Counted from the first letter of the stretch, positions 2,738-63,125 are shown. The stretch is 64,000 nt of DNA from an uncultured bacterium (GCA_964590395.1 CAZPVT010000005.1:116387-180386); one strand, 5' to 3'. A program made the numbers and translations. Notes: generated by a model not told the origin, from the sequence alone.

Positions 2738-5713
2738 TTATCTTTTCTTAAAATTCAACCTATTAGACCCGATAATCGTTACCGTATTGGAGTTATAGTT
2801 GGCGATATAGACCTTGTTATCACTGGTGTTGGTGCATATAGCAGAGGGATTTTCGCCAACAGGGATCGTTTTTTCAACATAGTTACTCGCGCCGTCGATC
2901 ATAGTAACGTTTCCGTTGTCATAGTTGGCAGCATAGACCTTGTTCACCCATCCTGCCCAGACAACACTGCGGGGATGGATGCCGGTATTGATATAGGTAT
3001 AGACGGTATAATTGTTAACATCAATAACCGTTAGGTCATTGGTAGCAGAATTGGCACAGTACAGACGGCTATCCGTCGGGTTTACTGCCAAGGCATAGGG
3101 TTCGTTACCAACCGTAATTGTGGTGATGACGTTCTGATTGGCACCGTTGATGATTGTGATCCGTCCCGCGGTGCCGCTGGCACGGTTTGCGACAGCAACA
3201 TTATGACGGTTGTCAACGATCAGTGTACAGGGCTGGAGATAGGCATTGACGGTACCGATTACATTATTGGTTGCGCCATCAATTACCGTTACATTATTAC
3301 GGGCGAAGTTAGCGCAGTAGATTTTATTGTACTCCGGGCTATAGACCAAGGCGACAGGGTTAGTGTCGACAGGAACAGTAGTTATGACTTGATTGTTGTT
3401 GCCATCGATAACTGTTACTGAAGCGGAACGGTAGTTACTTACATAAACCCGATTGTTGTTGGAGTTAAAGCAGACTGCCCTTGGATTTGTTCCGACCGGA
3501 ACGGTAGCGACTACCTCATTGCTTGCTCCGTCAATTATCGTAACCGAGTTACTGCCATAATTAGTGACATAAACCTTGCCGTTGTTGGTGTTGAGACACA
3601 GATTATACGGGAATCGACCAACGCGGATAGTGGTGATAACCTGGTTGGATGTACCATCAATAACCGTAACACTGGAGTCGTTGTAATTGGCAACGAATAT
3701 TTTGTTGTGGATGCTGTCCCAGAGCAGTGCTCGTGGTTTTGCTCCTACAGTGACGGTTGCGATTACAGTATCAGGCGGACCGCTGGATTGCGCGACAGTA
3801 AATAACTCGCTAAGCCCTTGGGTCATATGTTCACCACACCAAGCCCTGATTGCGATCCTTGCCTGATTGGTCGGTGGTGACGGAACTGCCCAGGCAAACT
3901 GTCCGGGCTGGGTTGTCATACCTTGACGTTGCCAGTCAACACCACCGTTGGTGGAGTAATAAATTACCGTTGATTCCATTCCGGCAAAGGTGCCACCGGT
4001 CCAGGTTATCTGCTGAATTGAACCGACGAGCCAGCGGCTCTCCGCGGTGGGTGAGGTTACGGTAATTGGTGAAGGCGGTAACGAGTCGTAGATTACATAG
4101 CGCGCACTGATTCCAGCAGTAGATAGGGTGTCAAGATAGGCGCGGACCTGAACGCGCGCCATTTCGGTAGCCGGACTTGGTACACGCCAGTTGTAACTCT
4201 GGGGTTGGGTTGCTCTGCCATGCCGTAGCCAGTTGTTCCCGTCATCGGTAGAGTAAAAGACGACAACCGAGTCCGGGGTCCTTGGACCACCGGTCCAAGT
4301 GATTGTCTGAACAGAACCTTCACGCCAGCGCGTCTGGGCATTGGGCTGGGTAATGGTGATCGGCGGTAGTCCTTCAATAATTTTGAATGTCGCACTGAGC
4401 CCGGTTGTCGAGGAGTCAAGACAGAATGCGGTAACCCTTATCCTTGCCTGATTGGTCGGTGGTGATGGAACTGTCCAGCGGAACCTATCACCCGGACGGG
4501 TGATTTTACCGATTTTCTGCCAGGTTGTGCCGTTGTTGGTTGAGTAATAAAGAACCGAGGAGTCCATTCCTAATAGTGTTCCACCGGTCCAGGTAATCTC
4601 ATAGTTAGAGCCGATTAACCATTCTGAGGTGGAGTCAGGAGATGTTATTGTGATCGGTGAAGGTTTATTCTGGTCATAGATTTCGTAAGCAGTGGAAGTG
4701 CCAGTAGCGGTATCGCCGGATAAAAACATCCGCACCTCAATGCGGGCGGTTGGTGTAGCGGGTTCCGGGACATTCCAGGTGTAACTGCCGGATTGGATGG
4801 CAATTCCATGCCTGAGCCAGTTAGCACCACTGTCGGTTGAATAGTAGATTACAACCGAGTCAGCGGCAAGCGATTGCTGGGTTTTGCCGAGTGAACTTGA
4901 TAATAGTTGATACTCGCTCCTTTTTTTAATAAATCTCTGGTCAACTCCACCTGTCCAGAGGATTGTTTGTTGGGAGTTTACCCGCCAGCGGGTTGTGTCG
5001 TTTGGTTCGAGAACTCTGATTGCCGGACAAGTTTTAAACTGCCAGAGTGGTCCGGCTGTGGTTGTACCGTGTTGGTCCCGGGCGACTACCTGCCAGTAAT
5101 AGGTTGAGTCATATTCTAATCTGGCTGTTGTATAACTGGTTTGATTATGTCCAGAAATTAATAATGGTGGTGGCGAGGTTGTGCCTAAATAGATATCATA
5201 ATAAACAGTGTCATTAGTGTCAGGGTCACCACCTGTCCAAGATAAGGTCAGACGGATAAATAACCCGGATGCACCGGACTCGGGCGTAGGATTAGACGGG
5301 GTAAAGGGTGGGTTATTTGCTTGGGCGATGGTCGTGAACGACCAGATCGGACTGGCTGCGGTTTCGCCGCAGCGGTCTTGAGCAACAATTCGCCAGTAGT
5401 ATCGGGCAAGGAGATTAAGGTTTCTGGGGCGGTAAAATGTGTCGACTATGCCCGAATCCCGGACCGGTGGAGGCGAGCTGGTGCCGAGGTAGATGTAGTA
5501 TTTCAGACTGTCCAGGCTGTCCGGATCCGAGCAGGTCCAACGCAAAACCACACTGGTGTCAATACTCACGGCGGAACTATCCGGGAAAACTAGGCGAGGA
5601 CGGTTGGGTGGATGGTTATTAGCCGGGTCAAACGGGTTATTCCACTTCCGACACAGTATGAACAAAAGTCCAGCTGTAATAATTATAAAAATGATGGATA
5701 ACGGTTTTTTCAT
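2738..5713 (-). CDS. Large secreted/surface protein with tandem Fn3/Ig-like beta-sandwich repeats and about 9 YVTN-type beta-propeller repeats
   Basis: 991 aa. N-terminal signal/TM (IIFIIITAGLLFILC). Repeated units WSFTT / WQFKT / YYSTDxGxxW. Many copies of the N-x-VYVxNYxSNxVTVIDGxxNxVxxTIPVG motif (YVTN family). Confidence 0.7.
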   Translation of the reverse strand: MKKPLSIIFIIITAGLLFILCRKWNNPFDPANNHPPNRPRLVFPDSSAVSIDTSVVLRWTCSDPDSLDSLKYYIYLGTSSPPPVRDSGIVDTFYRPRNLNLLARYYWRIVAQDRCGETAASPIWSFTTIAQANNPPFTPSNPTPESGASGLFIRLTLSWTGGDPDTNDTVYYDIYLGTTSPPPLLISGHNQTSYTTARLEYDSTYYWQVVARDQHGTTTAGPLWQFKTCPAIRVLEPNDTTRWRVNSQQTILWTGGVDQRFIKKRSEYQLLSSSLGKTQQSLAADSVVIYYSTDSGANWLRHGIAIQSGSYTWNVPEPATPTARIEVRMFLSGDTATGTSTAYEIYDQNKPSPITITSPDSTSEWLIGSNYEITWTGGTLLGMDSSVLYYSTNNGTTWQKIGKITRPGDRFRWTVPSPPTNQARIRVTAFCLDSSTTGLSATFKIIEGLPPITITQPNAQTRWREGSVQTITWTGGPRTPDSVVVFYSTDDGNNWLRHGRATQPQSYNWRVPSPATEMARVQVRAYLDTLSTAGISARYVIYDSLPPSPITVTSPTAESRWLVGSIQQITWTGGTFAGMESTVIYYSTNGGVDWQRQGMTTQPGQFAWAVPSPPTNQARIAIRAWCGEHMTQGLSELFTVAQSSGPPDTVIATVTVGAKPRALLWDSIHNKIFVANYNDSSVTVIDGTSNQVITTIRVGRFPYNLCLNTNNGKVYVTNYGSNSVTIIDGASNEVVATVPVGTNPRAVCFNSNNNRVYVSNYRSASVTVIDGNNNQVITTVPVDTNPVALVYSPEYNKIYCANFARNNVTVIDGATNNVIGTVNAYLQPCTLIVDNRHNVAVANRASGTAGRITIINGANQNVITTITVGNEPYALAVNPTDSRLYCANSATNDLTVIDVNNYTVYTYINTGIHPRSVVWAGWVNKVYAANYDNGNVTMIDGASNYVEKTIPVGENPSAICTNTSDNKVYIANYNSNTVTIIGSNRLNFKKR

Positions 5714-9815: not shown

Positions 9816-12800
9816 TCATTTATTCAACAGAAGTTCAAAATACGCCCGGATCAGTTTTTCATACTCAACCGGATAGCGCTGTTGCTGGAGGGCACGCAGG
9901 AGTTCGGACCGCAGTAGACGGTTTCTTTCCCCTTGGTCCTCGGGCAACTCGGGCGGATTTTCCAGACGGTAGGGACGTGCGGTTTCTGCCTGGCGTTCCT
10001 CTTTAAATCCCTGCTGACGGAGGCTGCGCTGGGCGTCAAGCAGGCGGGCGACGATGTCTTCCTGACGTTCAATCAGTTTGCGGTCAATTTGCAGTTCTGC
10101 CAGGCCTCTTTCCACCTGTCTCATCTCTTCCAGCATTCGGTCTAATGCACCGGTCAGACCGGGTCTTTCTCCACCCATCTGTTGCAGGAGTTGTTCCAGT
10201 TGCTGACGGAGTGCCTGCTGTTGAGAAAGTAGTCTGGATAACTGCGCCAGTTGCTGAGAGGTAAGACCGGTACTGGGAATTGGAATCGGCAAACTGGCAG
10301 TGCCGGCATTGATGCTCATCTGCTCGGATGCCATTTTCGCCAGTTGGTCAAGCAGGTTTTGCAACCCACCAGATAAACCACCTCCCTCCATTTTTGCTGC
10401 GGCACCGATTAACATTCCTGCGGCACGGTTCAGGCGCTGTCGTGCCTGGCGCATATTCTCTTTTGTACCACTGCCACTGCCCTCCATTGCCATTTTTGCG
10501 GCACTGCTCATCAGGTTGAGCGCATTGCCCAGTTCCTGATGGAGTGGCGGCGGGATTGCCAGTGTTCTGGTGCTCAGACTGGCGAGACTCTCCGCTGCCA
10601 TTTTGGTTGCTTCACCCAGCGCGGACTGTTCGTTGGCAATCTCCACCAGCCGGTCGCTGGTGGTCATTTTTTCCTCCAGTTTTTCCTGGTACTGAGAGAT
10701 GGTCAAGAGTTGATCAGCATTGGCAAGCAACTGTTTCATTACTTCCCGCGCGCGGTTTTTCTTTAACTGCTCACTCAGACATCGCAACCGATCGGCAAGT
10801 TGTCTAATGGATCCGGCGAGTTCTCGGGAGGGCAGTTGCGCGGACAATTTATCACCCGAGTTAAACAGTTGTTTTAAGGCGTCAGCCTGTTTCGGCAATT
10901 CCCGGATAGCCATCTCCTGGTTCAGTGCGGCGAGCGATTCGGTAAGTGCGGGTTCGGTGCATTGACGGGCAAGTTGCTCGATACCGTTCAAAAGACTGTC
11001 GAGATTGGTTTTTATCTCCTCCTGCTGTTGGATAAGTTGGGATTCATTTGCGGTTGGAATGTTGCCGGTTAGCTCATTTTGTTTTTGCGCCAGTTTTTCT
11101 GCCTGTCGTGCGAGTGCTTCCAGTTGGATCTCATCCATTATCCGTTTCAGGAGTTCTAAAGCGCGGTCAATGTCCGCCTTCAGGGCAGACTGCTGTTCCT
11201 GCAGACGTTCAAGTAGCGCTTTTAATTCATCGGGTCGGGCGGTCAGTTTACTACCCAGTTCGTTTAGTGCCTTCTGAAGTTCCTGCGGTAAAAGCCGAGA
11301 AAGCAGTTCCTGTAACTGGGACAGACGTTCCAGTGTTTCCTGATCCCAACTCATCCCTTGGAGCAGTTCCGCAGTGGTCTGGGCGACTTCGTTCTGCAGA
11401 CGGTCAATCTGGTTGAGCAGGTTTATCTGTTCATTCACGATCTGTTCCAGTTTTTTGCGTTCCTCCCAGCTGAGTTCCCGCTGTTTTTTTAACTCCTCAC
11501 TGATGCGCGCCAGCGCACTTCCGAGTTCTGCCTGTTCATTCTGGAGCGGTGCCAGTTGCTCCTGGGTGGTGGTGGTCTGGTTTACCGCCTGAGCGTAAAT
11601 CTGTTCCATACTGGGAAACCGCACCGTATAGATTTCACTGCGGGTACTTTTCGGACCGCTGATCGCATCATTGTCAACCACCCGCACAAAATACCGGACG
11701 GCTTCACCGGGCAGAAGGTTTGTTTTGCTCAGATCCCAGAGATAGAAGGTGGTGTCCTCCCGGTGGTTGTTGACCGTCTTCAGCCGGCGAGAGTTATTGA
11801 TGCTGTCCTTGCCGTAATGGAGCCAGATCTCGGTGATGCCAAAGTCGTCAATAGAGTTAATGCCCAGCGGAACCTGCATATTCATCGGCAGGTTGACATC
11901 ACGGCCGGGTAGAAACACTTTGACCAGTGGTGATTCATCCGGTATTGCCCGGATGTTGAATCGGTAAACCGTCTGCTGTCTATTTGGGAGCGTGGCGAGT
12001 TCAATTCTTGCCTCTCCATCCTGCCGGATGGTAAAACCGCCGCTGAGTTCTCCGGGTTGATCTCTGCTGAGCGCTAATGGCAGGGTCTCTGCTGGCAGAA
12101 TGAGAAAACCATTTTCCGCTGTGCCGGTAACTTGGGCGGTGAGATTTACCTTTGTTCCTTTCAGAAGTGCCAGATCACCGCCACTTTGACGGATGGGCTT
12201 CATTCCGGTATAAGCGGGTGGTGTGCAGTTAAAGGCAATGCTTTTAAGAGCCAGGGGCGCGATGATATTTACCCTATACCAGTCGGTTTTTTTGTTTAAA
12301 AGTCGGAACCGATAATAAAATGTTTCACCGGTGGTTAATGTAAAGATGCAGGAGTCAGCGGAAAGCCGGAGAGGGATTTTTTTTATCCGTGGTGAATTGG
12401 GGATGGCTGTTGTTTGCAACTGGATAGATTTGAATACGCCTGCAGGCTGGACTGAACAGACCAGTTTAGCAGTTTCGCCCGCAAGCAGGGTGGTATCACC
12501 AGGGACAACCTTTAGATAGATAGGCAGGTGGTCAGGTTTAAAAGCGTTCAGTAGACCAAATTTTACCCTTTCGCCTCCCTGGTTAAGCGTCAGGACAAGC
12601 AATACCAGCGCCAGAAGGCTAAAAACACCGGAAATCAGCAGGCGTCTGAAGGGCAGGATAAGTTTGAGCGGTAGCGGTCTTATCATTTCCTGCACCTGTT
12701 GAATTGCGGCATCGCGCAACTCCAGTGAGTAACCACGGCGATCAGGCTGGTAGTTTATCAGGTCCAGAGCAGAGACAACCTTTCCTTTTAACCCTGGGAA

Positions 12801-13049
12801 GGTGTGTTCAATTCTGTAACCGATATTTTTTAAGCCGGTTCTTTTTAGCCATAAGAATGATAAAATACCCAGCGGGATTAGTGAGAAGAGGAGTATCCAG
12901 CCGGAAAGGAAAAGACCAATGGCGAGCAGGGTTAATAAGATGTTGATACCGATAAAAATAAGTAAAAGCGAGAGTGTATTGATGAGGATTGCCCGGTAAC
13001 GGAGTTGCCGGATCTGCCTAACAAACTGCTCGTTAATTAACTCCCGCAC
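9816..13049 (-). CDS. Large membrane-anchored protein: N-terminal double-TM, beta-rich domain, then ~500-aa Q/L/E-rich coiled coil. Function unknown.
   Basis: 1077-aa ORF with GTG start. Two N-terminal TM helices plus a third hydrophobic segment. Long heptad-like low-complexity region. First gene of a minus-strand operon with the TPR, kinase-like and PEGA genes. Confidence 0.6.
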   Translation of the reverse strand: MRELINEQFVRQIRQLRYRAILINTLSLLLIFIGINILLTLLAIGLFLSGWILLFSLIPLGILSFLWLKRTGLKNIGYRIEHTFPGLKGKVVSALDLINYQPDRRGYSLELRDAAIQQVQEMIRPLPLKLILPFRRLLISGVFSLLALVLLVLTLNQGGERVKFGLLNAFKPDHLPIYLKVVPGDTTLLAGETAKLVCSVQPAGVFKSIQLQTTAIPNSPRIKKIPLRLSADSCIFTLTTGETFYYRFRLLNKKTDWYRVNIIAPLALKSIAFNCTPPAYTGMKPIRQSGGDLALLKGTKVNLTAQVTGTAENGFLILPAETLPLALSRDQPGELSGGFTIRQDGEARIELATLPNRQQTVYRFNIRAIPDESPLVKVFLPGRDVNLPMNMQVPLGINSIDDFGITEIWLHYGKDSINNSRRLKTVNNHREDTTFYLWDLSKTNLLPGEAVRYFVRVVDNDAISGPKSTRSEIYTVRFPSMEQIYAQAVNQTTTTQEQLAPLQNEQAELGSALARISEELKKQRELSWEERKKLEQIVNEQINLLNQIDRLQNEVAQTTAELLQGMSWDQETLERLSQLQELLSRLLPQELQKALNELGSKLTARPDELKALLERLQEQQSALKADIDRALELLKRIMDEIQLEALARQAEKLAQKQNELTGNIPTANESQLIQQQEEIKTNLDSLLNGIEQLARQCTEPALTESLAALNQEMAIRELPKQADALKQLFNSGDKLSAQLPSRELAGSIRQLADRLRCLSEQLKKNRAREVMKQLLANADQLLTISQYQEKLEEKMTTSDRLVEIANEQSALGEATKMAAESLASLSTRTLAIPPPLHQELGNALNLMSSAAKMAMEGSGSGTKENMRQARQRLNRAAGMLIGAAAKMEGGGLSGGLQNLLDQLAKMASEQMSINAGTASLPIPIPSTGLTSQQLAQLSRLLSQQQALRQQLEQLLQQMGGERPGLTGALDRMLEEMRQVERGLAELQIDRKLIERQEDIVARLLDAQRSLRQQGFKEERQAETARPYRLENPPELPEDQGERNRLLRSELLRALQQQRYPVEYEKLIRAYFELLLNK

Positions 13050-13139
13050 AGTAAAATACTATCTGTTTAATAGCCACAAGGCAAATTTGTGCCAGTAGGA
13101 AAAGATTAGGCTGGTCCGAAAGAAAAAAGCGGCGCGGTC

Positions 13140-13300
13140 ATTGCGCGGTCCTCCTCCTTTTGTCATTACGAGGAGCGTTAGCGACGAAGCAATCTATAAG
13201 CGGATAAATTGGCATCACACGCAAAGAGATTGCTTCGGGTTTTGCCCTCGCAATGAGCGGGAGGGCGAGAGTCATTGCGTTCTACCGTAGGCAGGTGGCA
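13140..13300. repeat. Structured intergenic repeat element, copy A of a dispersed family sharing a 28-nt core with 45150-45200
   Basis: Core AGCGACGAAGCAATCTATAAGCGGATAA matches 45168-45195 exactly. Internal inverted repeats: GAAGCAATCT/AGATTGCTTC and CGCAATGA/TCATTGCG. Confidence 0.55.
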
Positions 13301-13796
13301 ATCTACAACTTTGGATTAACCCGTGTTTTTAACTTAAGGGTTAAATTAGATTAACTGTTTGAATTGTCTTATTTTATATTATGGACGATATTTGAAAACC
13401 TGCCCAGGGGGCAGTATCGGGGAGGGTATCTGTAATGGTCTTGAACCGGGTTATGTGGCGGGTATCTTTCAGGGTTATAACGGTGGTAAAAGGTTTGGTT
13501 TTGTAGCCGGTTCTTGCCTGGCTCGGTGTTCTGGTACTTTCTACAGTTTTAATTATGACTTTCTCAATTCTGGGTATGATGGTTCTGTTCAAAGTTATGG
13601 TGAGGCTGTATCTGGTGGTAATAGGGTTGGTTCTGTTCTGGGTGGGTGGTGTGCTTTTCGGACGCAGGGTTTGCGTGATACGAGTGGAGCAGAGTGGGTG
13701 GAGGTTGCCGGCTGTAACTTAGTGGTGTGAAGTGTGTTGGATGTTTTAACTTTATTCTCCGGTTGAAAAGTTTTTCTAACTGGCTAATATTAAACG

Positions 13797-14702
13797 GTGC
13801 AAACTGTTGAGCATCAGTTAACCGTGGAGCGGCGGGTGACCCTGGTGGGAATGCTCATCAATATTCTGCTGGCGGTTGCCAAGTTGGTGGCAGGTGTTTT
13901 AGGCAGGTCATCCGCAATTATCGCTGACGGGTTGCACAGTTTTTCAGATCTGGCAAGTGATATTCCGGTGCTGTGGTGTGTGCGGGCTTCAAAGTCACTG
14001 CCGGATGAGGACCATCATTATGGCCATTACCGATATGAGGTGCTGATTGCACTTTTCGTCGGTGCGTTGCTGGTTTTTGTTGCGCTGTTTATTGCGGGGC
14101 AGGCGATTTTTACCATCAGTCAACAGCATGGTGGTGTGCGTAACTGGCTGCCGTTTTATATGGCGCTTGTTTCCATCGGGTTAAAGGAGATGCTCTTTTG
14201 GTGGACCAGGGCGGTGGGCAGGAGGTTTCAGAATCGGGCGCTTCTTGCCAATGCCTGGCATCACCGTTCTGATGCCTTTTCCTCAGTTGCGGTGGCGGCT
14301 GGTATTGGTGGTGCTTTGCTTGGTGGCGAACGCTGGGCGTTTCTTGACCCTCTGACCGCGGTGCTGTTGTCCGCATTTCTGGTTTATGTTGGAGTCCGGA
14401 TTGTGCGCGACGCTTTGCATAAACTTGCGGATCGGGCGCCTGAGACGGATGCGTTACTCCGGCTGAAAAAAGCGATTCTGGCGATTCCCGGGGTGAGGGG
14501 TTTTCATTCGCTTCGTGCCCGGCATTCTGGAGCGGGTAATCGGATTGAGATGGATGTCCATATTCAAGTTAGCCCGGATATTTCAGTTAAGGAGGGGCAT
14601 AATATTGCCACCAGGGTTGAGGAGGAGATCCGGCGAGTAAATTCTGATGTCAATGGAATTGTTGTGCATATTGAGCCGGATTCCGAGGAGAGATCGGTGT
14701 AA
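13797..14702 (+). CDS. Cation diffusion facilitator (CDF) family divalent-metal efflux transporter
   Basis: 301 aa. Six TM helices. HSFSDLASD and HHYGHYRYE metal-site motifs. C-terminal cytoplasmic domain typical of CzcD/FieF. Confidence 0.85.
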   Translation: MQTVEHQLTVERRVTLVGMLINILLAVAKLVAGVLGRSSAIIADGLHSFSDLASDIPVLWCVRASKSLPDEDHHYGHYRYEVLIALFVGALLVFVALFIAGQAIFTISQQHGGVRNWLPFYMALVSIGLKEMLFWWTRAVGRRFQNRALLANAWHHRSDAFSSVAVAAGIGGALLGGERWAFLDPLTAVLLSAFLVYVGVRIVRDALHKLADRAPETDALLRLKKAILAIPGVRGFHSLRARHSGAGNRIEMDVHIQVSPDISVKEGHNIATRVEEEIRRVNSDVNGIVVHIEPDSEERSV

Positions 14703-42445: not shown

Positions 42446-44893
42446 ATGGCAAAGAAGCGAGCAGCACCCCGGGCAAAAACGCCGGCAGTAAAAAGACCGG
42501 AGCAGGTGATACCAGAGGAGAAACTGCACCGTTATGCGGTAGCCGGTTTTTTTGTTCTGCCCCTGATTTTTTGGGGTAGGTTACTGTTTGGGCCTGTGAT
42601 GACGTATGGGACCGATTTTCTCGGTGCTGGGGGGTATGCGGCGCGTCAATTTATGGCTGAGTACATCCGCAACCATTTAACCATTGCGCTATGGCAGCCC
42701 CAGATACTGTGTGGTCAACCGACGGTAGCGGCATTTTTTGGCGATCTTTTTTATCCAACGATATTTTTACGTCTCTTTTTGCCCGTTCATATCGTTTGGG
42801 CGTGGACATTCTATATTCATACGGTACTGGCCGGGCTCGGTACCTATCTTTTTATCAGGGAACTGAAAGTTTCGACACTTGCAGGCGTTGTGGCTGGTGT
42901 TGCCTATATGTTTTCCGGTTCGCTGATGACCCTTGCCTTTGCCGGCCACGATGGCCGGTTAATCGGTTCCGCTTTGATGCCCTGGACGGTTTTTCTTTTG
43001 ATCCGGGGGTTAAATCGGCGACAACTGTTCTGGTTTGTGCTTACAGGTTTAGTGCTCGGTCTACAACTTCTGTCCGGACATATCCAGAAGGTATATTATA
43101 CCGTCTTGATACTGGTCGCCTGGTTTATCTTTAACTGGGTTCGGATGCTCAGGCAGGAGAAGGAGATAAAATCATCAGCAGTTAAATTGATAGGTTACTT
43201 TGGGCTTAGCGGACTCTTTGCGATTGGTATCGCGGCAATTCAGTATCTACCGATTTACGCCAATCTGCCTTACAGTGCCCGGGGCGCAGAGCGGGGTTAT
43301 GAGTTTGCTACCTCCTGGTCGATGCCGATCGCTGAGATATTTGATCTATTAACGCCGAAGTTCTCTGGTGGACTGGAGAACTACTGGAGTAAGAATCCGT
43401 TCAAACTGCACAGCGAGTATTTAGGGATTCTGCCTCTGCTTTTTGCCTTCATTGCCTTAATCCGATGCCACAAGACCCCCATCGTTAGATTTTTCTCTTT
43501 CACGGTGCTTTTTGCTGTATTAATGGCCTGGGGTGGAAACACACCTTTTTATCGTCTGCCTTATTACCTGCTGCCCGGAATCAGCAAGTTTCGCGGTCCA
43601 GGGATGATATTCTTTGTTGCCGGTTTTGCGCTTGCGGTACTGGCAGGCTATGGGGTTAATTACTGTTTTGACCGTTCAAACACCGATGGGTTGAAGAAAA
43701 CATTGCGGGCGCTACTTTACGCCGGGGCCGGGCTTTTTCTGTTACTACTGTTCTTTCTTGTTGCCCGTGATGCAGCGAGCTCGATTTTTAATCCGGGCAC
43801 GCGTCTTGTCCAGTTTGAAGCCAACTATCCCTCATTGACCTCAGGAATGGTATTTGCGGTATTCCTCTGGCTGATTGGCATCGGCATCGTCTATCTACCG
43901 CGTGCCGGTGTTAGTCCACAACTTGTGGTGGTGACAACCGTGCTGATAATGACGCTTGATGTTGGTTTAGCATTGAAACTCTGGGACAATCAGCGTGGTT
44001 ATATCCGTTCGGTTCCGCCACCGCAGGAGTATTTTGCTCCGGATGAAGTGGTGCGTTTTTTAAGGCCGGATAGTTCCTTTTATCGGGTTCTACCCTTAAA
44101 TTATGAACGCTCGGATCAGGGAATATTGTGGTTACACGGTATCTATTCTACCGGTGGGCAGATACCGAATCCTTTGCAGAGTTATCAGGATTTCATCGGT
44201 GCGGGGAAAAGCGTGCTCTTTCAGGCAAACAATCTGCTAAATTCCAATTTTATGAATTTACTGAATGTGAAATATGTTATTACCTACAACCTGCCAAGCG
44301 ACATCTCCCGGTTTGACCCCCAGAGCCAGCAGGTGATCAATCAGTTACGACTCTACTTCAGTCAGCCCCAGTTTGAGCAGGTATTTGCCGGAACTTACTA
44401 CGCGGTGTATTACAACCGGCAGTTTCTACCTCGTGCCTTTATTGTCCATAATTACGAGGTCGTTAGAGATAAGGATGAACTTTTGTCCCGATTGATGCAA
44501 CCGGATTTTGATCCCAGCCAGACCGCACTACTTTACACTAAACCAGAGTTTGAACCCGGTATGCTGGTGGATACGGTTGCCCGGTGTTCGATTGTATATT
44601 ATGATGCCAATCGGATTAAACTGTCTGCCCGGCTGTTAGCACCCGGACTGTTGATTCTTAGTGAGAACTATCATCCGGACTGGCAGGTTAAGATCAATGG
44701 CAAAAGTGCGCAGCTGTTACCCGCATTTCACACCCTGCGGGCAGTTGTTCTGGAGGTGGGCGAACATCAGGTGGAGTTTACTTATTATCCTAAATACTAC
44801 CGGCTGGGTATGCTTTTGACCCTGCTTACCGCATTGGCGATCCCCCTTTTGTCATTGCGAGGCACAAAGTACCATGGCAATCTCACAGCGTAA
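42446..44893 (+). CDS. YfhO-family polytopic membrane protein (surface polymer glycosylation)
   Basis: 815 aa. Many N-terminal TM helices plus a C-terminal extracytoplasmic domain. Sits in a GT1 + flippase-like cluster. Confidence 0.65.
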   Translation: MAKKRAAPRAKTPAVKRPEQVIPEEKLHRYAVAGFFVLPLIFWGRLLFGPVMTYGTDFLGAGGYAARQFMAEYIRNHLTIALWQPQILCGQPTVAAFFGDLFYPTIFLRLFLPVHIVWAWTFYIHTVLAGLGTYLFIRELKVSTLAGVVAGVAYMFSGSLMTLAFAGHDGRLIGSALMPWTVFLLIRGLNRRQLFWFVLTGLVLGLQLLSGHIQKVYYTVLILVAWFIFNWVRMLRQEKEIKSSAVKLIGYFGLSGLFAIGIAAIQYLPIYANLPYSARGAERGYEFATSWSMPIAEIFDLLTPKFSGGLENYWSKNPFKLHSEYLGILPLLFAFIALIRCHKTPIVRFFSFTVLFAVLMAWGGNTPFYRLPYYLLPGISKFRGPGMIFFVAGFALAVLAGYGVNYCFDRSNTDGLKKTLRALLYAGAGLFLLLLFFLVARDAASSIFNPGTRLVQFEANYPSLTSGMVFAVFLWLIGIGIVYLPRAGVSPQLVVVTTVLIMTLDVGLALKLWDNQRGYIRSVPPPQEYFAPDEVVRFLRPDSSFYRVLPLNYERSDQGILWLHGIYSTGGQIPNPLQSYQDFIGAGKSVLFQANNLLNSNFMNLLNVKYVITYNLPSDISRFDPQSQQVINQLRLYFSQPQFEQVFAGTYYAVYYNRQFLPRAFIVHNYEVVRDKDELLSRLMQPDFDPSQTALLYTKPEFEPGMLVDTVARCSIVYYDANRIKLSARLLAPGLLILSENYHPDWQVKINGKSAQLLPAFHTLRAVVLEVGEHQVEFTYYPKYYRLGMLLTLLTALAIPLLSLRGTKYHGNLTA

Positions 44894-45215
44894 AACCCGG
44901 GCTACCCGCAAAGGGATTGCTTCCTGCCTGCGGCAGTTCGCAATGACGAAGGAAGGAATGTCATTGCGAGGACGCTCCATCCCCCTTGTTATTGCAAGGA
45001 GCGATAGTGATGAAGCAATCTCACGTAAAGGGATTCCTTCGCCCTTCGGGCTCGGAATGACGAAAAAGGATAGGCTCGGAATGAAGAAAAAAGAATAGAC
45101 TTGGAATGACAAAGAAACGACGGGTGCGAAATGACAGAAAGGGGGAGACTGTCATTGATAGGAGTGATAGCGACGAAGCAATCTATAAGCGGATAAGACA
45201 GGATACACGCAAAAG
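44851..45215. repeat. Structured intergenic repeat region, copy B of the dispersed family, with a degenerate ~24-nt tandem array
   Basis: GTCATTGCGAGG occurs twice. Hairpin CGCAATGAC-12nt-GTCATTGCG. Four tandem units ..GGAATGACgAAAaag.. at 45048-45145. 28-nt core identical to 13182-13209. Confidence 0.55.
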
Positions 45216-45242
45216 TAATTGCGCCGATTTCCGGGATACTGT

Positions 45243-45270
45243 TTGACAGCCGAGCCGATTTTGTTAAAAT
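45243..45270 (+). promoter_or_regulatory. Sigma-70-like promoter for the lipoprotein-receptor-T9SS-cargo operon
   Basis: TTGACA-16 nt-TAAAAT. Downstream GTG start with AAGGAGG. Confidence 0.45.
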
Positions 45271-55335: not shown

Positions 55336-55406
55336 AGGCCTCTAATTCCTCGGGAAGTCTGCTGAATAATCACAATCAACTACTTAGTTGTGTAACTAAT
55401 ATATAA

Positions 55407-56672
55407 CTATGCTTCTGCCGCACATAAAAATTGAATTACATCGGCTAGATATTCAACTTTATTTTTCCCGGGCGGTAATAACCTGTTTTCAAATATATAA
55501 ATATATTTGTCAAGCAAGTAATTTACAATTGTAGTGAGTTCAACTTCTCCGCACTCCGAATTTATTACGGAATCGTACATTAGTCTTAAACTTTTATCTT
55601 CTTTCAATAAGCCTAAAAAACTTATGGTGAAATTCTTTTTATATTTAAGTAACATACTCCTTTCGTCAATAGTTATTAGTTGAGATAACCAAATATCATC
55701 GTATTTCAATAAAAGCAAATCGGATACTGAAAAACTTTTCCTAAAAAGCTTTAATGTAATATCGTTACCGTATAACGCTCCTACTCTTACTATTAATTTA
55801 GAATAAGACAAACCGATCTCCATTTGTAAGTTCTCGGTGTCTTTACTAATTATTTTCATTGTTGGACTTTGTTCTATTATATTTTGTAGGTATTCAAAGC
55901 CTTCCCGGCTTGAAGAGTAAAATCCGTTGGTTTTATCGCCTTGAATTGTCGCGGGATTGTCACCTGTATCAAACAAAACACCGATATATATTTCAAAGTT
56001 TTTAATTCCAAACTTCTCAAGTAATTCTGTTAGAGAAAATTCCTCATGGTTTCTTCTGAATAATTTTATATTGGAGTTAAAATACTCTACGAAAATTCCA
56101 AATTTTTCCGATGTCCAGATTTCTCGTCTGCCAGCAGCCCCGCCGGTATCTACTCTATTTTTAAGTTCAACTAATACAATCGTTTTTTCGTCTTGTATAA
56201 TACTTCCTACATCAGTGGTTACATCCTTGTTACCTAACCAATCCCATTCAATCGTCCTTAAGATTTTCTTTTCTGTGGAGGACAACCCTTGCTGAGTAAA
56301 AATACCCTTCTTCTTGTGGATAGATGGGTATGTTAACCAAAATGGAAGTTTGCTAAGTTCTATATCCAGAGAACAATTTTCAAAGGAGGAGGCTATTTTC
56401 TTTTCAATATACCTTCCACGACCACCCTGACTGTGATGATAATAAGATGTAACACCTAGTAAAGCTTCGTAATATTCTTTGATTTCAGGTGGAGCACTTA
56501 ATAGTCCATCGTAAACTTTGGCTACCGGATCAAAATCCTTTGCATTAATATTCATACAAAGCTCTTTGAAATTTATTAATATGTTTTTATAAGGTTCATA
56601 AAGTAATATTTGTCCAAGATCTAATTTCCCTTTTTCTTTTATACACAGAAGGTTTTTCTTTTTAATAATCAC
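55407..56672 (-). CDS. Hypothetical protein (candidate restriction endonuclease partner of the upstream methyltransferase)
   Basis: 421-aa ORF in ~33% GC DNA. Its start lies 1 nt after the MTase stop. Possible PD-(D/E)xK-like IIQDEK..LVELK segment (weak). Confidence 0.4.
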   Translation of the reverse strand: MIIKKKNLLCIKEKGKLDLGQILLYEPYKNILINFKELCMNINAKDFDPVAKVYDGLLSAPPEIKEYYEALLGVTSYYHHSQGGRGRYIEKKIASSFENCSLDIELSKLPFWLTYPSIHKKKGIFTQQGLSSTEKKILRTIEWDWLGNKDVTTDVGSIIQDEKTIVLVELKNRVDTGGAAGRREIWTSEKFGIFVEYFNSNIKLFRRNHEEFSLTELLEKFGIKNFEIYIGVLFDTGDNPATIQGDKTNGFYSSSREGFEYLQNIIEQSPTMKIISKDTENLQMEIGLSYSKLIVRVGALYGNDITLKLFRKSFSVSDLLLLKYDDIWLSQLITIDERSMLLKYKKNFTISFLGLLKEDKSLRLMYDSVINSECGEVELTTIVNYLLDKYIYIFENRLLPPGKNKVEYLADVIQFLCAAEA

Positions 56673-56673
56673 A

Positions 56674-58005
56674 TTATTTCACTTTCTCGCAAATTATTAT
56701 ACTTTCTCCTCTGATTGCTCTATTCCGAGCACCTAATAGGGGATTAAATATCAATCTTTCAAATTTAAATCCCACTTCTTCACAAAACCTTTTAGTTGTC
56801 AAGGTAGTGGGAATTTTTTTCCCATTTACGGTACTGTCTCCAATTATAATAGCCAGCTTGCCGCCAGGCTTTAATGCCCAGAAGATATTTTTTATTAATT
56901 CTTTCAAGTCTTCATAATACATCGCTACTTTTGGAGGCAGTCCTTTATAAGATATTTCTGATTTCCCATTTTTCATACCCAGATATCTTGACTCGATTTT
57001 TTTCATATCTATGCCCAAATAGTCATAAGCAATTTTGTCTTTCCCAACATAATCTATAGAAAAATAGTAAGGCGGACTTGTAATGCAGGCGTCAAATTTC
57101 CCATCGAACTCCCTCATTTTCTTGAGTTCAAGGACATCGCCTTCAATGATTTTGGCAGGTTTAAAGTTAAGGCGATATTTTTCTTTTATTTCTATCGTTT
57201 TTTTTGAACATTGTTTTATATAGTTTAATTTTTCAATAAAGAGCCCCAATTTTCCTTTTCTATTATACCTTGAAGTTCTCATAAAGGCATCGACTGTATC
57301 AAAATATACTGCGAGCATTAATTTTTGAATTAATGGATCGGGGCATCCCCAGTTTTTATTTTCTATGGCTTGTAAGATATCTTGGAGTTCTTGTTGAGTA
57401 AAATTCAACTTTTGTTCATCGATAAAAAGCAAATCGTTTTTTAATTCTGATAGAACAATTCCCATCGGGGTAACATCTATGCCAGTACTTTTGATTCCCA
57501 TAAGGGAGGCTTCGTGTGTAGTCGTTCCTGAGCCGTTAAAGGGGTCTAAAAGGAGAGAATCGCTGTTTAATTTAAAGGTATTAATTAAAGTCCTAACTAC
57601 TCGTGGATAGAATTTGCCTTTATATGGATATAGATTATGAAACGCATAGGCATTCGTGTCACCAAATTTATCAACAAAATCTGTGTAAAGAGTTTTTTCC
57701 CCTTTTACTATTTCTAGGTGCGCTACTCTTAACCTTATAAATTCTTCATCGCCCTTAAATCTAACCGTTCGGTTTATTGGGTCAATTTTATATTCTTCAG
57801 TTAACCCACGCAGTTCTAAATCCAAAAGTTCCAGATCTGCAAGGGTTTGCATCCAGAAGCCAAATATTGTGTCACCTTTTTGGGCGACATAGTTTGCAAA
57901 TTCTTGGGAGTAAGCCTCGATTATCTCTTGATAAGACGGAAATTCGTAGGTACCAAACATCGTCATTTGTTTTCCCTGTTTTAATGCTCGAACGTCTTTA
58001 CTCAT
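56674..58005 (-). CDS. DNA amino-methyltransferase (N6-adenine or N4-cytosine), type II R-M-like
   Basis: Motif I LLDPFNGSGTT, then, after a TRD-sized gap, motif IV ITSPPYY. AT-rich. Confidence 0.75.
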   Translation of the reverse strand: MSKDVRALKQGKQMTMFGTYEFPSYQEIIEAYSQEFANYVAQKGDTIFGFWMQTLADLELLDLELRGLTEEYKIDPINRTVRFKGDEEFIRLRVAHLEIVKGEKTLYTDFVDKFGDTNAYAFHNLYPYKGKFYPRVVRTLINTFKLNSDSLLLDPFNGSGTTTHEASLMGIKSTGIDVTPMGIVLSELKNDLLFIDEQKLNFTQQELQDILQAIENKNWGCPDPLIQKLMLAVYFDTVDAFMRTSRYNRKGKLGLFIEKLNYIKQCSKKTIEIKEKYRLNFKPAKIIEGDVLELKKMREFDGKFDACITSPPYYFSIDYVGKDKIAYDYLGIDMKKIESRYLGMKNGKSEISYKGLPPKVAMYYEDLKELIKNIFWALKPGGKLAIIIGDSTVNGKKIPTTLTTKRFCEEVGFKFERLIFNPLLGARNRAIRGESIIICEKVK

Positions 58006-58094
58006 TTATAAACTTTCCCCGATTGAGCATATATAGATTAATTTGAGATAAACAGTTGATTCGACGAGAGAGTAAGATCAATAACATTATCTAA

Positions 58095-58215
58095 AATTTA
58101 TAGTTGCACCCCTCCAAGTCAACTTTTTACCGGCGAGTGTTGCGGTTCCGGCACTGCCAGGCGCCGGTATCGGGGATAGGTTTTTTGAAACAGACCAGAG
58201 GGCAATTTGGGCATA
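58095..58215. repeat. Copy 2 of a triplicated palindrome + promoter-like element
   Basis: CCTCCAAGTCAA...CCGGCActgccaggcGCCGG-TATCGGGGATAGGTTTTTTGAAA. Shares the 5' part and core with 62995-63125. ~90 nt upstream of the MTase start. Confidence 0.6.
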
Positions 58216-58734
58216 TGAACTGGCAATGATATTTTCCACATCATTAGTCCCGCTTAGTCCTTTTTTCTCTCTGCTCTTTTATACCATTAATTATCCAGAT
58301 GGTTAGAGCGATAATTATGCAAATAATTACGAAAGCCACAACCAGATAGTAAACTGTAAGTGTTATTAATGGCAGTGTCGCTTAAACTAATATTGCCACC
58401 GGCAGAAGAATAAGTATCGCTAATACTTTAGCAACCAAACGAACTTGATGCTTGTTTCGAAACTTCCATAGTCCAATGGCAGTAAAAATACTAATGATAG
58501 CAATACTTAATAGGCTAATTAACATCCAGGCCTTTATACCTTCGCCATATATAAGCGAGATAAACAGGAGATATAGTGGTATTATTGTCTCCAGTATTAA
58601 AAGCCTAATTATATTACGAATTGATGCCAGCTCTTTCTTAATATTATATACCGCCTTTTATGCTATTTCCGATAACGTCTTGCGGATAAAAGAATTTGCC
58701 GAAGGTAATGTTGGGCGAAGCCTCTTATCCGCTG

Positions 58735-59664
58735 TTAGGCGGAGGAGCACTCTCTTTCCCAGCTTTCCTGTATCGGGCGATAAATTTCTTCTATTCTTTC
58801 CTTCGTTAGCAAATTTTCTTTTATTATAACCTCATATACATGAACCTGAAAATCGCTCCACCTAATCGGATGAGCAATTTGGCGTCTTGGTGTAAGCTCT
58901 TTTAACTCATAGTCTTTTAGTTCCAACCCTTTGGATAAAAATGCTTTTAAGTCCTCTGTGTCAAAATGAATTTCGTTATCAGCAATTAAATACCTTGTAT
59001 TTAGAACCGAAAAGTAGGGATAAATATTTGTAACACTTTTCCTATTTCCACCCTTGCCACATCCTTCTCGCACTTTCACCATATAAGCGACATTTATTCC
59101 GTGTCTAAGAAGAACCTCTTGAAAGAAGTTTATATTTTCAAATAGAAAATAAATCACAGGTTTTTCAATCTTTCCCAACTTGTTTGAGGTTATCTCAATG
59201 TCTAATAAATAAATTTCCGGAGTTTTTGGAGCCTCTTCTTTATCAACAACAGATTCCTCATTAACTTCATATTTTACTAAAGAAGCGTCGATACATAAAG
59301 GATAAATCTTTTTCGCTACTACATTTGTTTTGCCGTCGTTAAACACTTCGCCTTTCTTCAGTTTTACCATTTTTTTATTATAATCTGTATGTATAAAAAG
59401 ATCCGGGGCAGGAATTCCATAGTCTGTTACAATATTGATATTACCCCTGATACCCCTGATATTATTTTCATCTATCTCGGACAATTCCAAAATGTCGCGA
59501 TAGTCATTACCAGCACTTGGATACCATAAGATTTCTGGATTATCGCCGACTGTGCTAAATAAATCGTTGAGTCGTTTTTGTGACGCTTGATTTCTCGCTT
59601 TTAATAGTTGTTTAATAGATCTTACTTCCTTATAGCCTTTCTTCGGATCTTTTCTTGTTGACAT
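58735..59664 (-). CDS. Hypothetical protein (309 aa), AT-rich, flanked by copies of the repeated element
   Basis: Long ORF in low-GC DNA. No recognisable motifs. Confidence 0.4.
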   Translation of the reverse strand: MSTRKDPKKGYKEVRSIKQLLKARNQASQKRLNDLFSTVGDNPEILWYPSAGNDYRDILELSEIDENNIRGIRGNINIVTDYGIPAPDLFIHTDYNKKMVKLKKGEVFNDGKTNVVAKKIYPLCIDASLVKYEVNEESVVDKEEAPKTPEIYLLDIEITSNKLGKIEKPVIYFLFENINFFQEVLLRHGINVAYMVKVREGCGKGGNRKSVTNIYPYFSVLNTRYLIADNEIHFDTEDLKAFLSKGLELKDYELKELTPRRQIAHPIRWSDFQVHVYEVIIKENLLTKERIEEIYRPIQESWERECSSA

Positions 59665-59780
59665 ATTACCTCCTTGTTTTAGAGCGATTTTTTATCTTTT
59701 GTGTGCGGTCAAGGTCCAATAAGGACATCGATAAAATTCATAACAATAACAATAAATCTGTCGAGGTCAAGTTTTTTCTT

Positions 59781-59885
59781 GCAGTTTGTTTTCATCCGGC
59801 AGTGTTAGGTGCCGGTAGCGGGGATAGGTCTTTTCAAATAGTTGGAGAATAGTCCGGGCAAGTTCTGGGTAGGGGACAGGTAAGG
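59781..59885. repeat. Copy 3 of the triplicated element
   Basis: CCGGCAgtgttaggTGCCGG-TAGCGGGGATAGGTCTTTTCAAATAGTTGGAGAATAGTCCGGGCAAGTTC. Shares the core and 3' part with 63040-63110. Confidence 0.6.
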
Positions 59886-60088
59886 GACGGTTTTAAATTC
59901 CAAGGATTATCTGCAGGGGTTCTGTTTTACGCTTTCTTTTTTAAACCTGTGAGAGTTAAATTCTTTTGTTTAAAGGTGTCCAAGAGGTCACCTCGACAGG
60001 TTATCTATATCTATTTTCCCCTCATATTTGCCGGCAAGGATTCAAAAGAAATTTCGTCAATGATGTTTGAGGATAAGTTCGGACATAA

Positions 60089-61579: not shown

Positions 61580-61987
61580 TACAAACTAAACACGCATTCA
61601 GATTGTATCACAATACAAACTGAATGTCAAATAAAGACCCTCTTGTCACCTCTGGTGGTGTAAATAGCAACTGGTTAAAAACAGATAACCCTGGATGAGT
61701 ATTTTGGATAACCATCGTCGCCCGATTTGTCAAAATGCGCCAAATACATAATTTCACCACCAGATTAAAGGTTTTATTATTTTATAATTCACCTCCTTTA
61801 AATTGACCTTTTCGATATCTTTTGCTTTGCTATCTTCGCATTGCTTAAGTTTAAGGCATTTAAAGAAACCACCTCCACCATCAATTATGGCACCGACAAA
61901 TAGAGCATCTAACACGTTATAAAAATTTTCTTCTTATAATTATGATAATAAGTCCCCCTTAAATTCAATCTTTTATCGGCAGGTTTT

Positions 61988-62994: not shown

Positions 62995-63125
62995 CTTAAT
63001 ACTCCTCCAAGTCAAGCTTTGTTCTCGGGCTGTGCTTTGTCCGGCACTGCCATATGCCGGTATCGGGGATAGGTTTTTTCAAAGAGTTGGAGGATGGTGC
63101 GGGCAAGTTCCGGATAGGGGGCAGT
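62995..63125. repeat. Copy 1 (most complete) of the triplicated element; it overlaps the 3' end of the HTH gene
   Basis: CTCCTCCAAGTCAAG...CCGGCActgccataTGCCGG-TATCGGGGATAGGTTTTTTCAAAGAGTTGGAGGATGGTGCGGGCAAGTTCCGG. Confidence 0.6.

Follow-up and report, generated by a model that had tools for sequence, protein, structure and literature searches.

Why should a sequence of 28 nucleotides, AGCGACGAAGCAATCTATAAGCGGATAA, occur twice without a single difference in the DNA between the genes of an uncultured bacterium? The two copies lie in a stretch of 64,000 nucleotides (GCA_964590395.1, CAZPVT010000005.1:116387-180386), referred to below as the window. Our reading, to which we assign a probability of about 0.65, is that they belong to two intergenic clusters of a hairpin repeat that resembles the repetitive extragenic palindromes (REPs), that is of the CGTC-tagged kind of REP, and that is also of the kind of hairpin recognized by Ssn nucleases. 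The form that is copied is a dimer, made of two inverted units and a spacer. Complete dimers of the family flank genes for Ssn-type nucleases in other organisms; by analogy, we infer that in the present genome the units are, or were, single-stranded DNA (ssDNA) hairpin substrates of a cognate Ssn.

The 28-mer and its surroundings

The 28-mer occurs exactly twice in the window, at 13180-13207 and 45169-45196, both times on the plus strand. A sequence-only reading had drawn attention to an identical 28-nt core at two sites about 32 kb apart and had taken it for a dispersed repeat family and not for chance. Once the second site is corrected by one nucleotide to 45169-45196, both statements hold: none of 100 dinucleotide-preserving shuffles matched the 28-mer, with up to three mismatches tolerated, and further copies are found in many phyla. 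A repeat search of the window outlines a family of 47 nt around the 28-mer, with members at 13161-13207, 45150-45196 (89%) and 44987-45033 (64%). The sequence 3' of the unit is also common to both copies, with about 80% identity, judged by eye, across about 66 nt.

Both copies had further been described as intergenic, as carrying words of the type GTCATT(A/G)CGAGG with their inverted complements, and as having hairpin-forming arms, and these features were all found again. Words like GTCATTGCGAGG and GAAGCAATC and their complements occur only in 13136-13306 (region A) and 44850-45230 (region B), bar one match with two mismatches that we regard as noise. Region A is bounded by a DUF4175-like gene (9816-13049, minus strand) and a cation-efflux gene (13797-14702, plus strand), and region B by a YfhO-like gene (42446-44893, plus strand) and a lipoprotein-like gene that starts at about 45328 (plus strand; alternative start at about 45292); the open reading frames (ORFs) on either side thus place both copies between genes. 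Copy A folds into a hairpin of about 120 nt with a predicted energy of -66.9 kcal/mol, with z -2.8 for the plus strand and z -5.2 for the minus strand. What has to be given up is the view of the 160-nt stretch at copy A as a single element, as it is a cluster of several units of about 37 nt.

Profile hidden Markov models (HMMs) built solely from copies in other genomes recover 13161-13196 at E = 2.6e-8, 45160-45185 at E = 1e-4 and four more sites at E < 0.01, and have no significant match elsewhere in the 64 kb. In total the window holds eight recognizable units, together with fragments, all of them in the two regions (Table 1). Small ORFs that overlap the repeats, such as 13141-13290 and 44874-45098, are accounted for by the repeat clusters and were judged spurious.

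The unit and the dimer

What, then, is repeated? The structure of the unit was taken from 744 units of other genomes. The unit is about 32-38 nt long and consists of a (C/T)GTC tag, ATTGC, GA, an inner segment, GAA, GCAAT, and a C followed by 2-3 nt. The tag is CGTC in 625 of the 744 units (84%) and TGTC in 106 (14%), ATT..../....AAT is present in all of them, and 74% end in a CCAN tail and 10% in a CTCN tail. Two types stand out by the length of the inner segment. In the S type (289 units) it has 7 nt and reads GC-GNA-GC, where the middle base of the triloop alone varies (GCGAAGC 149, GCGCAGC 71, GCGTAGC 24, GCGGAGC 18), and in the L type (209 units) it has 13 nt and reads G-GA-GC-GNA-GC-GA-C. 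The remaining units carry other small inner hairpins, for example GGCCC-GCA-GGGCC and GCCC-AAA-GGGC. Of the inner segments, 246 are distinct, and 56 of these terminate in a perfect stem of at least 3 bp; shuffled segments yield about 5. The outer stem shows compensation across families, with ATTGC/GCAAT, ATTCC/GGAAT (unit B2' of the window), ATTCT/AGAAT (Planktothrix) and ATTCCCGC/GCGGGAAT (Neisseria). The purine-rich internal loop of this composite hairpin possibly forms tandem G.A pairs.

In the fetched loci 177 dimers could be parsed, in which the units are inverted with their tags outward, on either side of a spacer of 20-35 nt with complementary ends (164 of 350 strand-reads have CAG...CTG). 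A dimer mostly joins unlike units, an L with an S, and the inner segments of the two are not mutually complementary. This makes each unit look like an independent hairpin; the long hairpin of the dimer follows from the inverted arrangement. Conservation applies to the unit as a module and not only to the dimer, and single units and head fragments occur frequently. Predicted DNA folds show the expected architecture in units with longer inner hairpins, and the consensus units are marginally stable. As the energetics of the single unit are marginal, the unit fold rests on comparative evidence.

Two special arrangements were seen. In hybrid dimers (L028, L029, L032, L063, L084, L131, L152 and others) a unit of the ATTGC type is paired with an alphaproteobacterial TGTC-tagged unit, CCTGTCATCGGGCCGCGC...GCGCGGACCCGTTGG, which suggests that different CGTC-type families recombine or use common machinery. 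In two IMG/VR loci, L044 and L071, three dimers follow one another in tandem every 157 nt or so, each repeat comprising a dimer and about 100 nt of flank; this is local amplification of the element with its flank and not dispersed insertion.

How widespread is the family? A full-dimer pattern found 71 loci in the viral collection IMG/VR, and a partial pattern found at least 120 stretches in a collection of species-representative genomes; the parts of the element that the search patterns left unspecified are conserved too. The hosts include many Bradyrhizobium, other Alphaproteobacteria, Rickettsiales (Ca. Tisiphia), Gammaproteobacteria, Patescibacteria, Ignavibacteria, Bacteroidota (Pedobacter, Sphingobacterium), Chloroflexi/Anaerolineae, Zixibacteria, Syntrophaceae, Spirochaetes (Spirochaetaceae) and Binatia. 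The search for copies elsewhere that the sequence-only reading had proposed as a check has thus turned up hundreds, spread over many phyla, with additional copies in a close relative. A literature search with strings of the repeat sequence returned primer matches only.

Ssn nucleases and the repeat

What protein might recognize such a hairpin? Chenal et al. (2025, Nat Commun 16:2388, PMC11893778) show that the Neisseria NTS/dRS3 unit, in which the NTS reads CGTCATTCCCGCGMAVGCGGGAATCYRG, is the target of SsnA, a single-domain GIY-YIG protein of 94 aa. SsnA binds the hairpin solely as ssDNA, and one strand only, and cuts a few nt 5' of the hairpin; the GTC before the NTS palindrome matters for cleavage and the C after it for binding. 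The ssn genes, of the type cd10448, are typically flanked by 'Ssn-related motifs' (SRMs), and the role demonstrated for SsnA in Neisseria is modulation of transformation (PMC11893778). Across the 744 units the present family keeps the GTC 5' and the C 3' of the palindrome, the positions that are critical in N. meningitidis.

The family is also found next to ssn genes. An Ssn-like query led to ssn genes in records of N. gonorrhoeae, Azospirillum and Planktothrix. Dimers of the form TGTC-ATTCT-GAG-TGAAAC-GAA-GAAT-CTC flank the gene in Planktothrix and share the GA..GAA architecture, and ssn loci in the viral collection carry units of the form CGTC-ATCCCGCA-CGAA-GCGCAGC-GAAG-ATGCGGGA-CCCAGG. On metagenome contigs, a pattern consisting of TCGCAATGAC, 20-50 nt and a GIY-YIG N-terminus gave at least 120 loci; the same pattern found nothing in viral contigs. 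The 120 metagenome ORFs listed all match an HMM based on five known members of Ssn, at E values between 1e-8 and 1e-42. Among the matches listed, a GTCATTGCGA head lies no more than 120 nt past the stop codon in 79 of the 99 complete genes that have enough downstream sequence; such a head, which the pattern did not demand downstream, is present in 32 of 2588 background windows (1.2%). Strict full dimers stand on both sides of the gene in 30 of the listed loci. The repeat-flanked proteins are about 95 aa long, contain PF01541 only and keep the catalytic Tyr, Tyr and Glu, and one of them has 61% identity with the SsnA orthologue from gonococci. The contigs that encode them range from 32 to 70% GC.

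Most of the contigs with Ssn homologues are very short (0.5-3 kb). Two independent short-read contigs from Logan, L072 and L073, which carry the identical cation-efflux gene, both begin about 108 nt downstream of region A (at about 13414 of the window). Both observations are consistent with assemblies that break at the repeats.

Several findings count against an Ssn connection for the copies in the window, or limit how far it can be carried. Two regular expressions and then the HMM detected no ssn gene, either in the 64-kb window or among 193 element-only loci; the HMM scan covered the first 203 loci fetched, in which the ssn loci themselves gave the only matches, and the loci L324-L329 lay outside it. 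These latter loci come from candidate division WOR-3, the group named for the closest homologues of the proteins that flank the clusters, and in a profile search none of the 120 listed among at least 8000 scored candidates, all of them GIY-YIG proteins, is named WOR-3, which tells little either way. The published SRM expression, HGTCWYN(0-2)YYVSBRHN(0-5)WNVSBRGN(0-2)RNCYNB, misses the ATTGC family, whose G at the fourth stem position and long composite loop do not fit it. It matches the NTS and the Azospirillum unit, misses the S and L consensus as well as the ssn-flanking units of Planktothrix and of locus L199, and has no match anywhere in the window, the window units included. Nearest-neighbour DNA folding of single consensus units does no better than shuffles (z about 0). 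Most window units are mutated at positions important in Neisseria; mutations affect the GTC 5' of the palindrome or the C 3' of it in A2 and B2, whereas A1, A3, B1, B1', B2' and B3 keep these bases. Finally, biochemical specificity is known for hairpins of Neisseria and Wolbachia only, and Ssn is not known to mobilize the repeats, even in Neisseria.

How might such a system work? By analogy with SsnA of N. meningitidis (PMC11893778), each unit would fold on its own strand when DNA becomes single-stranded during replication, transformation or repair, and the folded unit would be bound in a sequence-specific manner by the cognate Ssn, which would then nick the DNA a few nt 5' of the GTC tag. On the same analogy, cutting by Ssn could drive the spread of the repeat, local recombination and the turnover of clusters. 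Spread and turnover would depend on Ssn activity or on recombination between copies.

One may go a step further, and ask whether the ATTGC-GA...GAA-GCAAT repeat is a distinct, nearly pan-bacterial sub-type associated with Ssn, in which a cassette like an insertion sequence (IS), 'dimer-ssn-dimer', is accompanied by non-autonomous dimers. We put this forward tentatively, as a proposal that may well prove wrong. If it is true, then the cassette would have spread horizontally again and again, which would account for the near-identity of the repeat from Bradyrhizobium to Patescibacteria, Chloroflexi and WOR-3; Ssn would be the enzyme long sought as the mobilizer or maintainer of the 'orphan' CGTC REPs, and the ATTGC family would be the best natural system for testing the partnership of Ssn and CGTC REPs.

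RNA, transposases and other explanations

Could the hairpins work as RNA? The dimers might be transcribed in the 3' or 5' untranslated regions of messages, where the long hairpin would serve as a protector of the 3' end, as a terminator or as a small structured RNA. Stabilization of mRNA is the classical role of REPs. The dimer hairpins are long and stable on either strand, and cluster B begins within the 3' end of the yfhO-like gene. By heuristic gene calls, which underlie all the figures on gene context given here, the median distance from the upstream stop codon to a dispersed dimer is 10.5 nt, and transcription of many REPs is argued for by Di Nocera et al. (PMC3733652). Other findings speak against an RNA-level element. 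Dispersed dimers fall in tandem, convergent and divergent intergenic regions in the ratio 47:20:10, which is close to that of the background (493:220:152). Where the flanking genes are in tandem, the leading unit is the long one in 21 cases and the short one in 21, so that there is no orientation bias relative to transcription, and copy A itself lies between divergent genes. Rfam 15 searched against the window gives only tRNAs at the gathering score, and nothing relevant appears at E <= 10 on both regions or at E <= 1 on canonical copies. Neither region of the window has terminator-like tails or U-tracts. From phylum to phylum the stems keep their sequence and show no covariation, a sign of a protein that reads sequence, and the non-complementary inner segments of the two units also tell against a role as RNA. 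The sole characterized partner of such hairpins acts on ssDNA and not on RNA (PMC11893778). We therefore consider an RNA-level explanation unlikely, although an RNA-level role could coexist with the DNA-level explanation.

Is the repeat instead a REP mobilized by a REP-associated tyrosine transposase (RAYT), a Y1 HUH enzyme like those of IS200/IS605, in the manner of the REP doublets known as REPINs? The general architecture is alike, with inverted REP dimers and a spacer, an intergenic location and the lack of a target-site duplication. The tag is (C/T)GTC, however, and not the GTAG tetranucleotide, and Di Nocera et al. came upon no gene for a tyrosine transposase with CGTC repeats on its flanks (PMC3733652). 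The gene that we do find flanked encodes a GIY-YIG nuclease; the loci were not screened with a Y1-transposase profile. Mobilization by a RAYT thus seems to us quite improbable.

The sequence-only reading had left the choice between a miniature inverted-repeat transposable element (MITE) or REP-like element and a small structured RNA family, and had suggested a look at covariation. It is the REP-like alternative that fits, given the CGTC-tagged REP frame and the inverted dimers, and the RNA family finds no support in the evidence above, in which covariation is lacking. A MITE in the strict sense, a deleted IS with terminal inverted repeats that is moved by a DDE transposase, is harder still to defend. 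Small size and inverted termini, GTCATTGCGAG / CTCGCAATGAC, are what such an element would show. Among 146 distinct dimers, however, counts of target-site duplications of 2-8 nt are at or below chance, and the flanks are random beyond +/-2, the bases at -1 and +1 being complementary (C/G or T/A) in 84%. The unit is moreover conserved in itself, and not only the dimer, solitary units and head fragments being frequent, and no transposase gene is associated with the family. We give the MITE almost no credence.

Five other candidates were rejected outright: a chance match (by the shuffles), a CRISPR, an integron attC site (no GTTRRRY core), an intrinsic terminator (no T tract) and a coding repeat (intergenic, and frames not conserved).

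Gain and loss of units in WOR-3 relatives

What has happened to the clusters in this lineage? In the close relative GCA_053497075.1, site B (L324) retains a decayed unit B1 at the 3' end of yfhO, and about 315 nt of the window (44912-45225, comprising B1', B2, B2', fragments and B3) are replaced by about 45 unrelated nt. At site A of the same relative (L328) the orthologous dimer A is present, its head closer to the canonical form, and so is an extra block of units of about 200 nt at the point that corresponds to window position 13136/13137. One unit of this block matches the 30-nt core of B2' exactly, and the block also holds a spacer that resembles the one in dimer A. The site is empty in a more distant WOR-3 relative (L329), in which the same two genes are separated by 90 nt with no element. 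As the relatives differ in their units and one site is empty, the clusters must have been gained and remodelled within the lineage, in part by duplication between repeated modules. The window-specific spacer AAGCGGATAAATTGGCATCAC... was searched for in all fetched loci and found only in the close relative (L328), so that no 'master copy' came to light among the fetched loci by this route.

A Gly/Val-rich ORF of 123 aa without a Pfam match lies between region A and the cation-efflux gene (13359-13730). It is present in L328 (4659-4934) and absent from L329, where the intergenic region is the 90 nt just mentioned, and it may have arrived together with the repeats.

Units of the window

The units and fragments are collected in Table 1. 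The dimers are A1/A2, B1/B1' and B2/B2'. The two 28-mer copies begin in A1 and B3, each of which holds the first 18 nt of its copy (13180-13207 and 45169-45196); both are L-type units with damaged outer stems, that of A1 having one A.C mismatch. The tag is TGTC in A1, B1 and B3, CGTC in B1' and B2', and mutated in A2 (GCTC, from GTC to CTC), A3 (AGTC) and B2 (TGTT). In the tails (CTAT, CTCA, CTCT, CTAC, CCCT) the C is retained and the rest varies. For A2 the fold predicts the outer stem and an inner hairpin, GGG/CCC. B1' has an inner hairpin of 5 bp with a GCA triloop, and its predicted DNA fold (-7.3 kcal/mol) has the expected architecture. The outer stem of B2', ATTCC/GGAAT, is a double compensatory change from ATTGC/GCAAT, and the 30-nt core of this unit that recurs in L328 is 45033-45062. 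Most of the units are decayed, with mutated tags, broken stems or heads only, and so they are probably relics and passengers.

Table 1. Repeat units, spacers and fragments of the window (positions counted from its first nucleotide)
Feature	Position	Strand	Sequence	Basis and remarks
Solitary head fragment, unit 5' end only	13136..13148	+	GGTCATTGCGCGG	Head search; kept in relative L328
Unit A1, L type	13161..13197	+	TGTC-ATTAC-GA-GGAGCGTTAGCGAC-GAA-GCAAT-CTAT	L-unit HMM from other genomes, E = 2.6e-8
Dimer A spacer	13198..13224	+	AAGCGGATAAATTGGCATCACACGCAA	Common to dimer B3 and two dimers in relative L328
Unit A2, inverted partner of A1	13225..13258	-	GCTC-ATTGC-GA-GGGCAAAACCC-GAA-GCAAT-CTCT	Unit fold, head search, HMM
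Unit A3, degenerate, without GA..GAA frame	13270..13306	+	AGTC-ATTGC-[19 nt]-GCAAT-CTAC	Head search
Unit B1	44850..44885	+	TGTC-ATTGC-GAGGCACAAAGTACCATG-GCAAT-CTCA	Head search; decayed orthologous copy in relative L324
Unit B1', well preserved	44912..44948	-	CGTC-ATTGC-GAA-CTGCC-GCA-GGCAG-GAA-GCAAT-CCCT	Fold, head search, HMM
Head fragment	44959..44974	+	TGTCATTGCGAGGACG	Word search, HMM
Unit B2, L type, decayed	44987..45023	+	TGTT-ATTGC-AA-GGAGCGATAGTGAT-GAA-GCAAT-CTCA	64% to A1; HMM
Unit B2', well preserved	45029..45062	-	CGTC-ATTCC-GA-GCCC-GAA-GGGC-GAA-GGAAT-CCCT	Fold, head search
Three head-only fragments	45075..45086, 45100..45111, 45124..45136	-	CTCGGAATGAAG, CTTGGAATGACA, GTGCGAAATGACA	Head search
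Unit B3, L type	45150..45186	+	TGTC-ATTGA-TA-GGAGTGATAGCGAC-GAA-GCAAT-CTAT	89% to A1; HMM E = 1e-4; absent from L324
Dimer B3 spacer (like dimer A spacer), then decayed remnant of inverted partner	45187..45230	+	AATTGCGCC... (partner remnant)	Sequence comparison

Unit B1 reaches into a gene. The last ~14 codons of the YfhO-like ORF come from it, the stop codon (44891-44893) standing 6 nt past the unit; the Pfam YfhO match stops at residue 792 of 815, and the B1-derived C-terminus is also present in L324, where the unit is decayed. B1 has been co-opted as the end of the yfhO-like gene in both genomes. Directly after cluster B, at 45243-45270, there is a near-consensus promoter of the sigma-70 type (TTGACA, 16 nt, TAAAAT, with a TG extension; 11/12), which is also conserved in the relative; cluster B separates the yfhO stop codon from it.

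Two further features of the window concern other repeats. A block of low GC (55400-61600, 0.34-0.37 versus about 0.49) contains ORFs for a DNA-methylase-like protein (56674-58005, minus strand), DUF7663 (58735-59664, minus strand) and an AAA_14 ATPase (60089-61579, minus strand). A direct repeat of 47-85 nt is present three times, at 58147-58193, 59795-59879 and 63040-63124, the last inside the 3' end of an ORF at 63012-63938 (minus strand). The block has the look of acquired DNA, possibly with a role in defence, that was inserted in nested fashion and is accompanied by duplicated gene-end or att-like sites. At 2770-3706 a 49-nt segment recurs six times with a period of 126 nt and 61-71% identity, which probably reflects a protein domain of 42 aa repeated within a large gene.

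What the copies add

The copies in the window extend a known kind of repeat to candidate division WOR-3, and the clusters account for two long intergenic regions and for the odd C-terminus of the YfhO-like protein; they also mark sites at which assemblies from short reads may be interrupted. To specialists in REPs or Ssn all of this will come as no surprise. The modest addition is a very widespread variant that the SRM expression misses and that is linked directly to genes for Ssn-type GIY-YIG proteins. This suggests that SRM counts obtained with the published expression are underestimates, and it supports Ssn as the partner enzyme of the 'orphan' CGTC REPs.

Comparison with known repeat systems

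How does the family compare with repeats already described? One such kind is the CGTC-tagged REPs, CGTC-1 to -4, of Di Nocera, De Gregorio and Rocco (2013, BMC Genomics 14:522, PMC3733652). These have a terminal CGTC or TGTC tag (variant CCTC), a stem that starts from AT and a CCA tail, and mainly form inverted dimers; they occur in five phyla, near the 3' ends of genes and sometimes in frame within genes, and the Neisseria dRS3 and the Rickettsia RPE-4 and RPE-6 are classed with them. When the peptides VIPAKAGI and VIAGLDPAIH of the supplement are back-translated, they give units that have this frame and different stems. The present family shares the CGTC/TGTC tag, the A-T then T-A start of the stem, the short tail with an initial C (CCA in most members), the inverted dimers and a spacer with complementary ends. 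It is likewise intergenic near gene 3' ends, occasionally supplies codons, is not known to have an associated tyrosine transposase, and occurs in Proteobacteria, Bacteroidetes, Chlorobi, Spirochaetes and others. It differs in that the published units have a stem of 8-9 bp and a loop of 4-5 nt, whereas the ATTGC family has a composite of 5 bp, a GA/GAA loop and an inner hairpin, and in that the window tails read C-T-A/C instead of CCA; the comparison with CGTC-1 to -4 is by description only. The supplementary data of this paper and of Chenal et al. (PMC11893778) yielded no sequence of the exact ATTGC family.

The NTS and SRM hairpins share with the family the frame CGTCATT-[palindrome]-AATC(C/T)(A/G)G and a hairpin of defined orientation, the presence of units on both sides of genes for single-domain GIY-YIG proteins of about 95 aa, and hundreds of copies in some genomes. 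The ATTGC family, unlike these, reaches Patescibacteria, Zixibacteria and WOR-3, phyla not named for SRM in the text consulted (PMC11893778), and the ATTGC variant is described here from its sequence, with no cognate ssn gene found in the window.

The REPs and bacterial interspersed mosaic elements (BIMEs) of E. coli and Pseudomonas, with their REPINs and RAYTs, are likewise short extragenic palindromes in which an inverted doublet is the replicating unit; mixed clusters like BIMEs, the lack of a target-site duplication and a presumed ssDNA hairpin as the recognized form are further points in common. They have a GTAG tag and an HUH Y1 transposase, in contrast to the CGTC tag and GIY-YIG nuclease, and REPINs are lineage-specific in sequence, whereas the ATTGC unit is nearly identical across phyla.

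The Rickettsia RPE-4 and RPE-6, finally, can insert in frame into genes, much as B1 forms the C-terminus of the YfhO-like protein here. They differ in their stem, which is of the ATTCCCGC type, and in their hosts, and in-frame insertions internal to genes were not seen in the window, where the repeat enters the reading frame only at its end.

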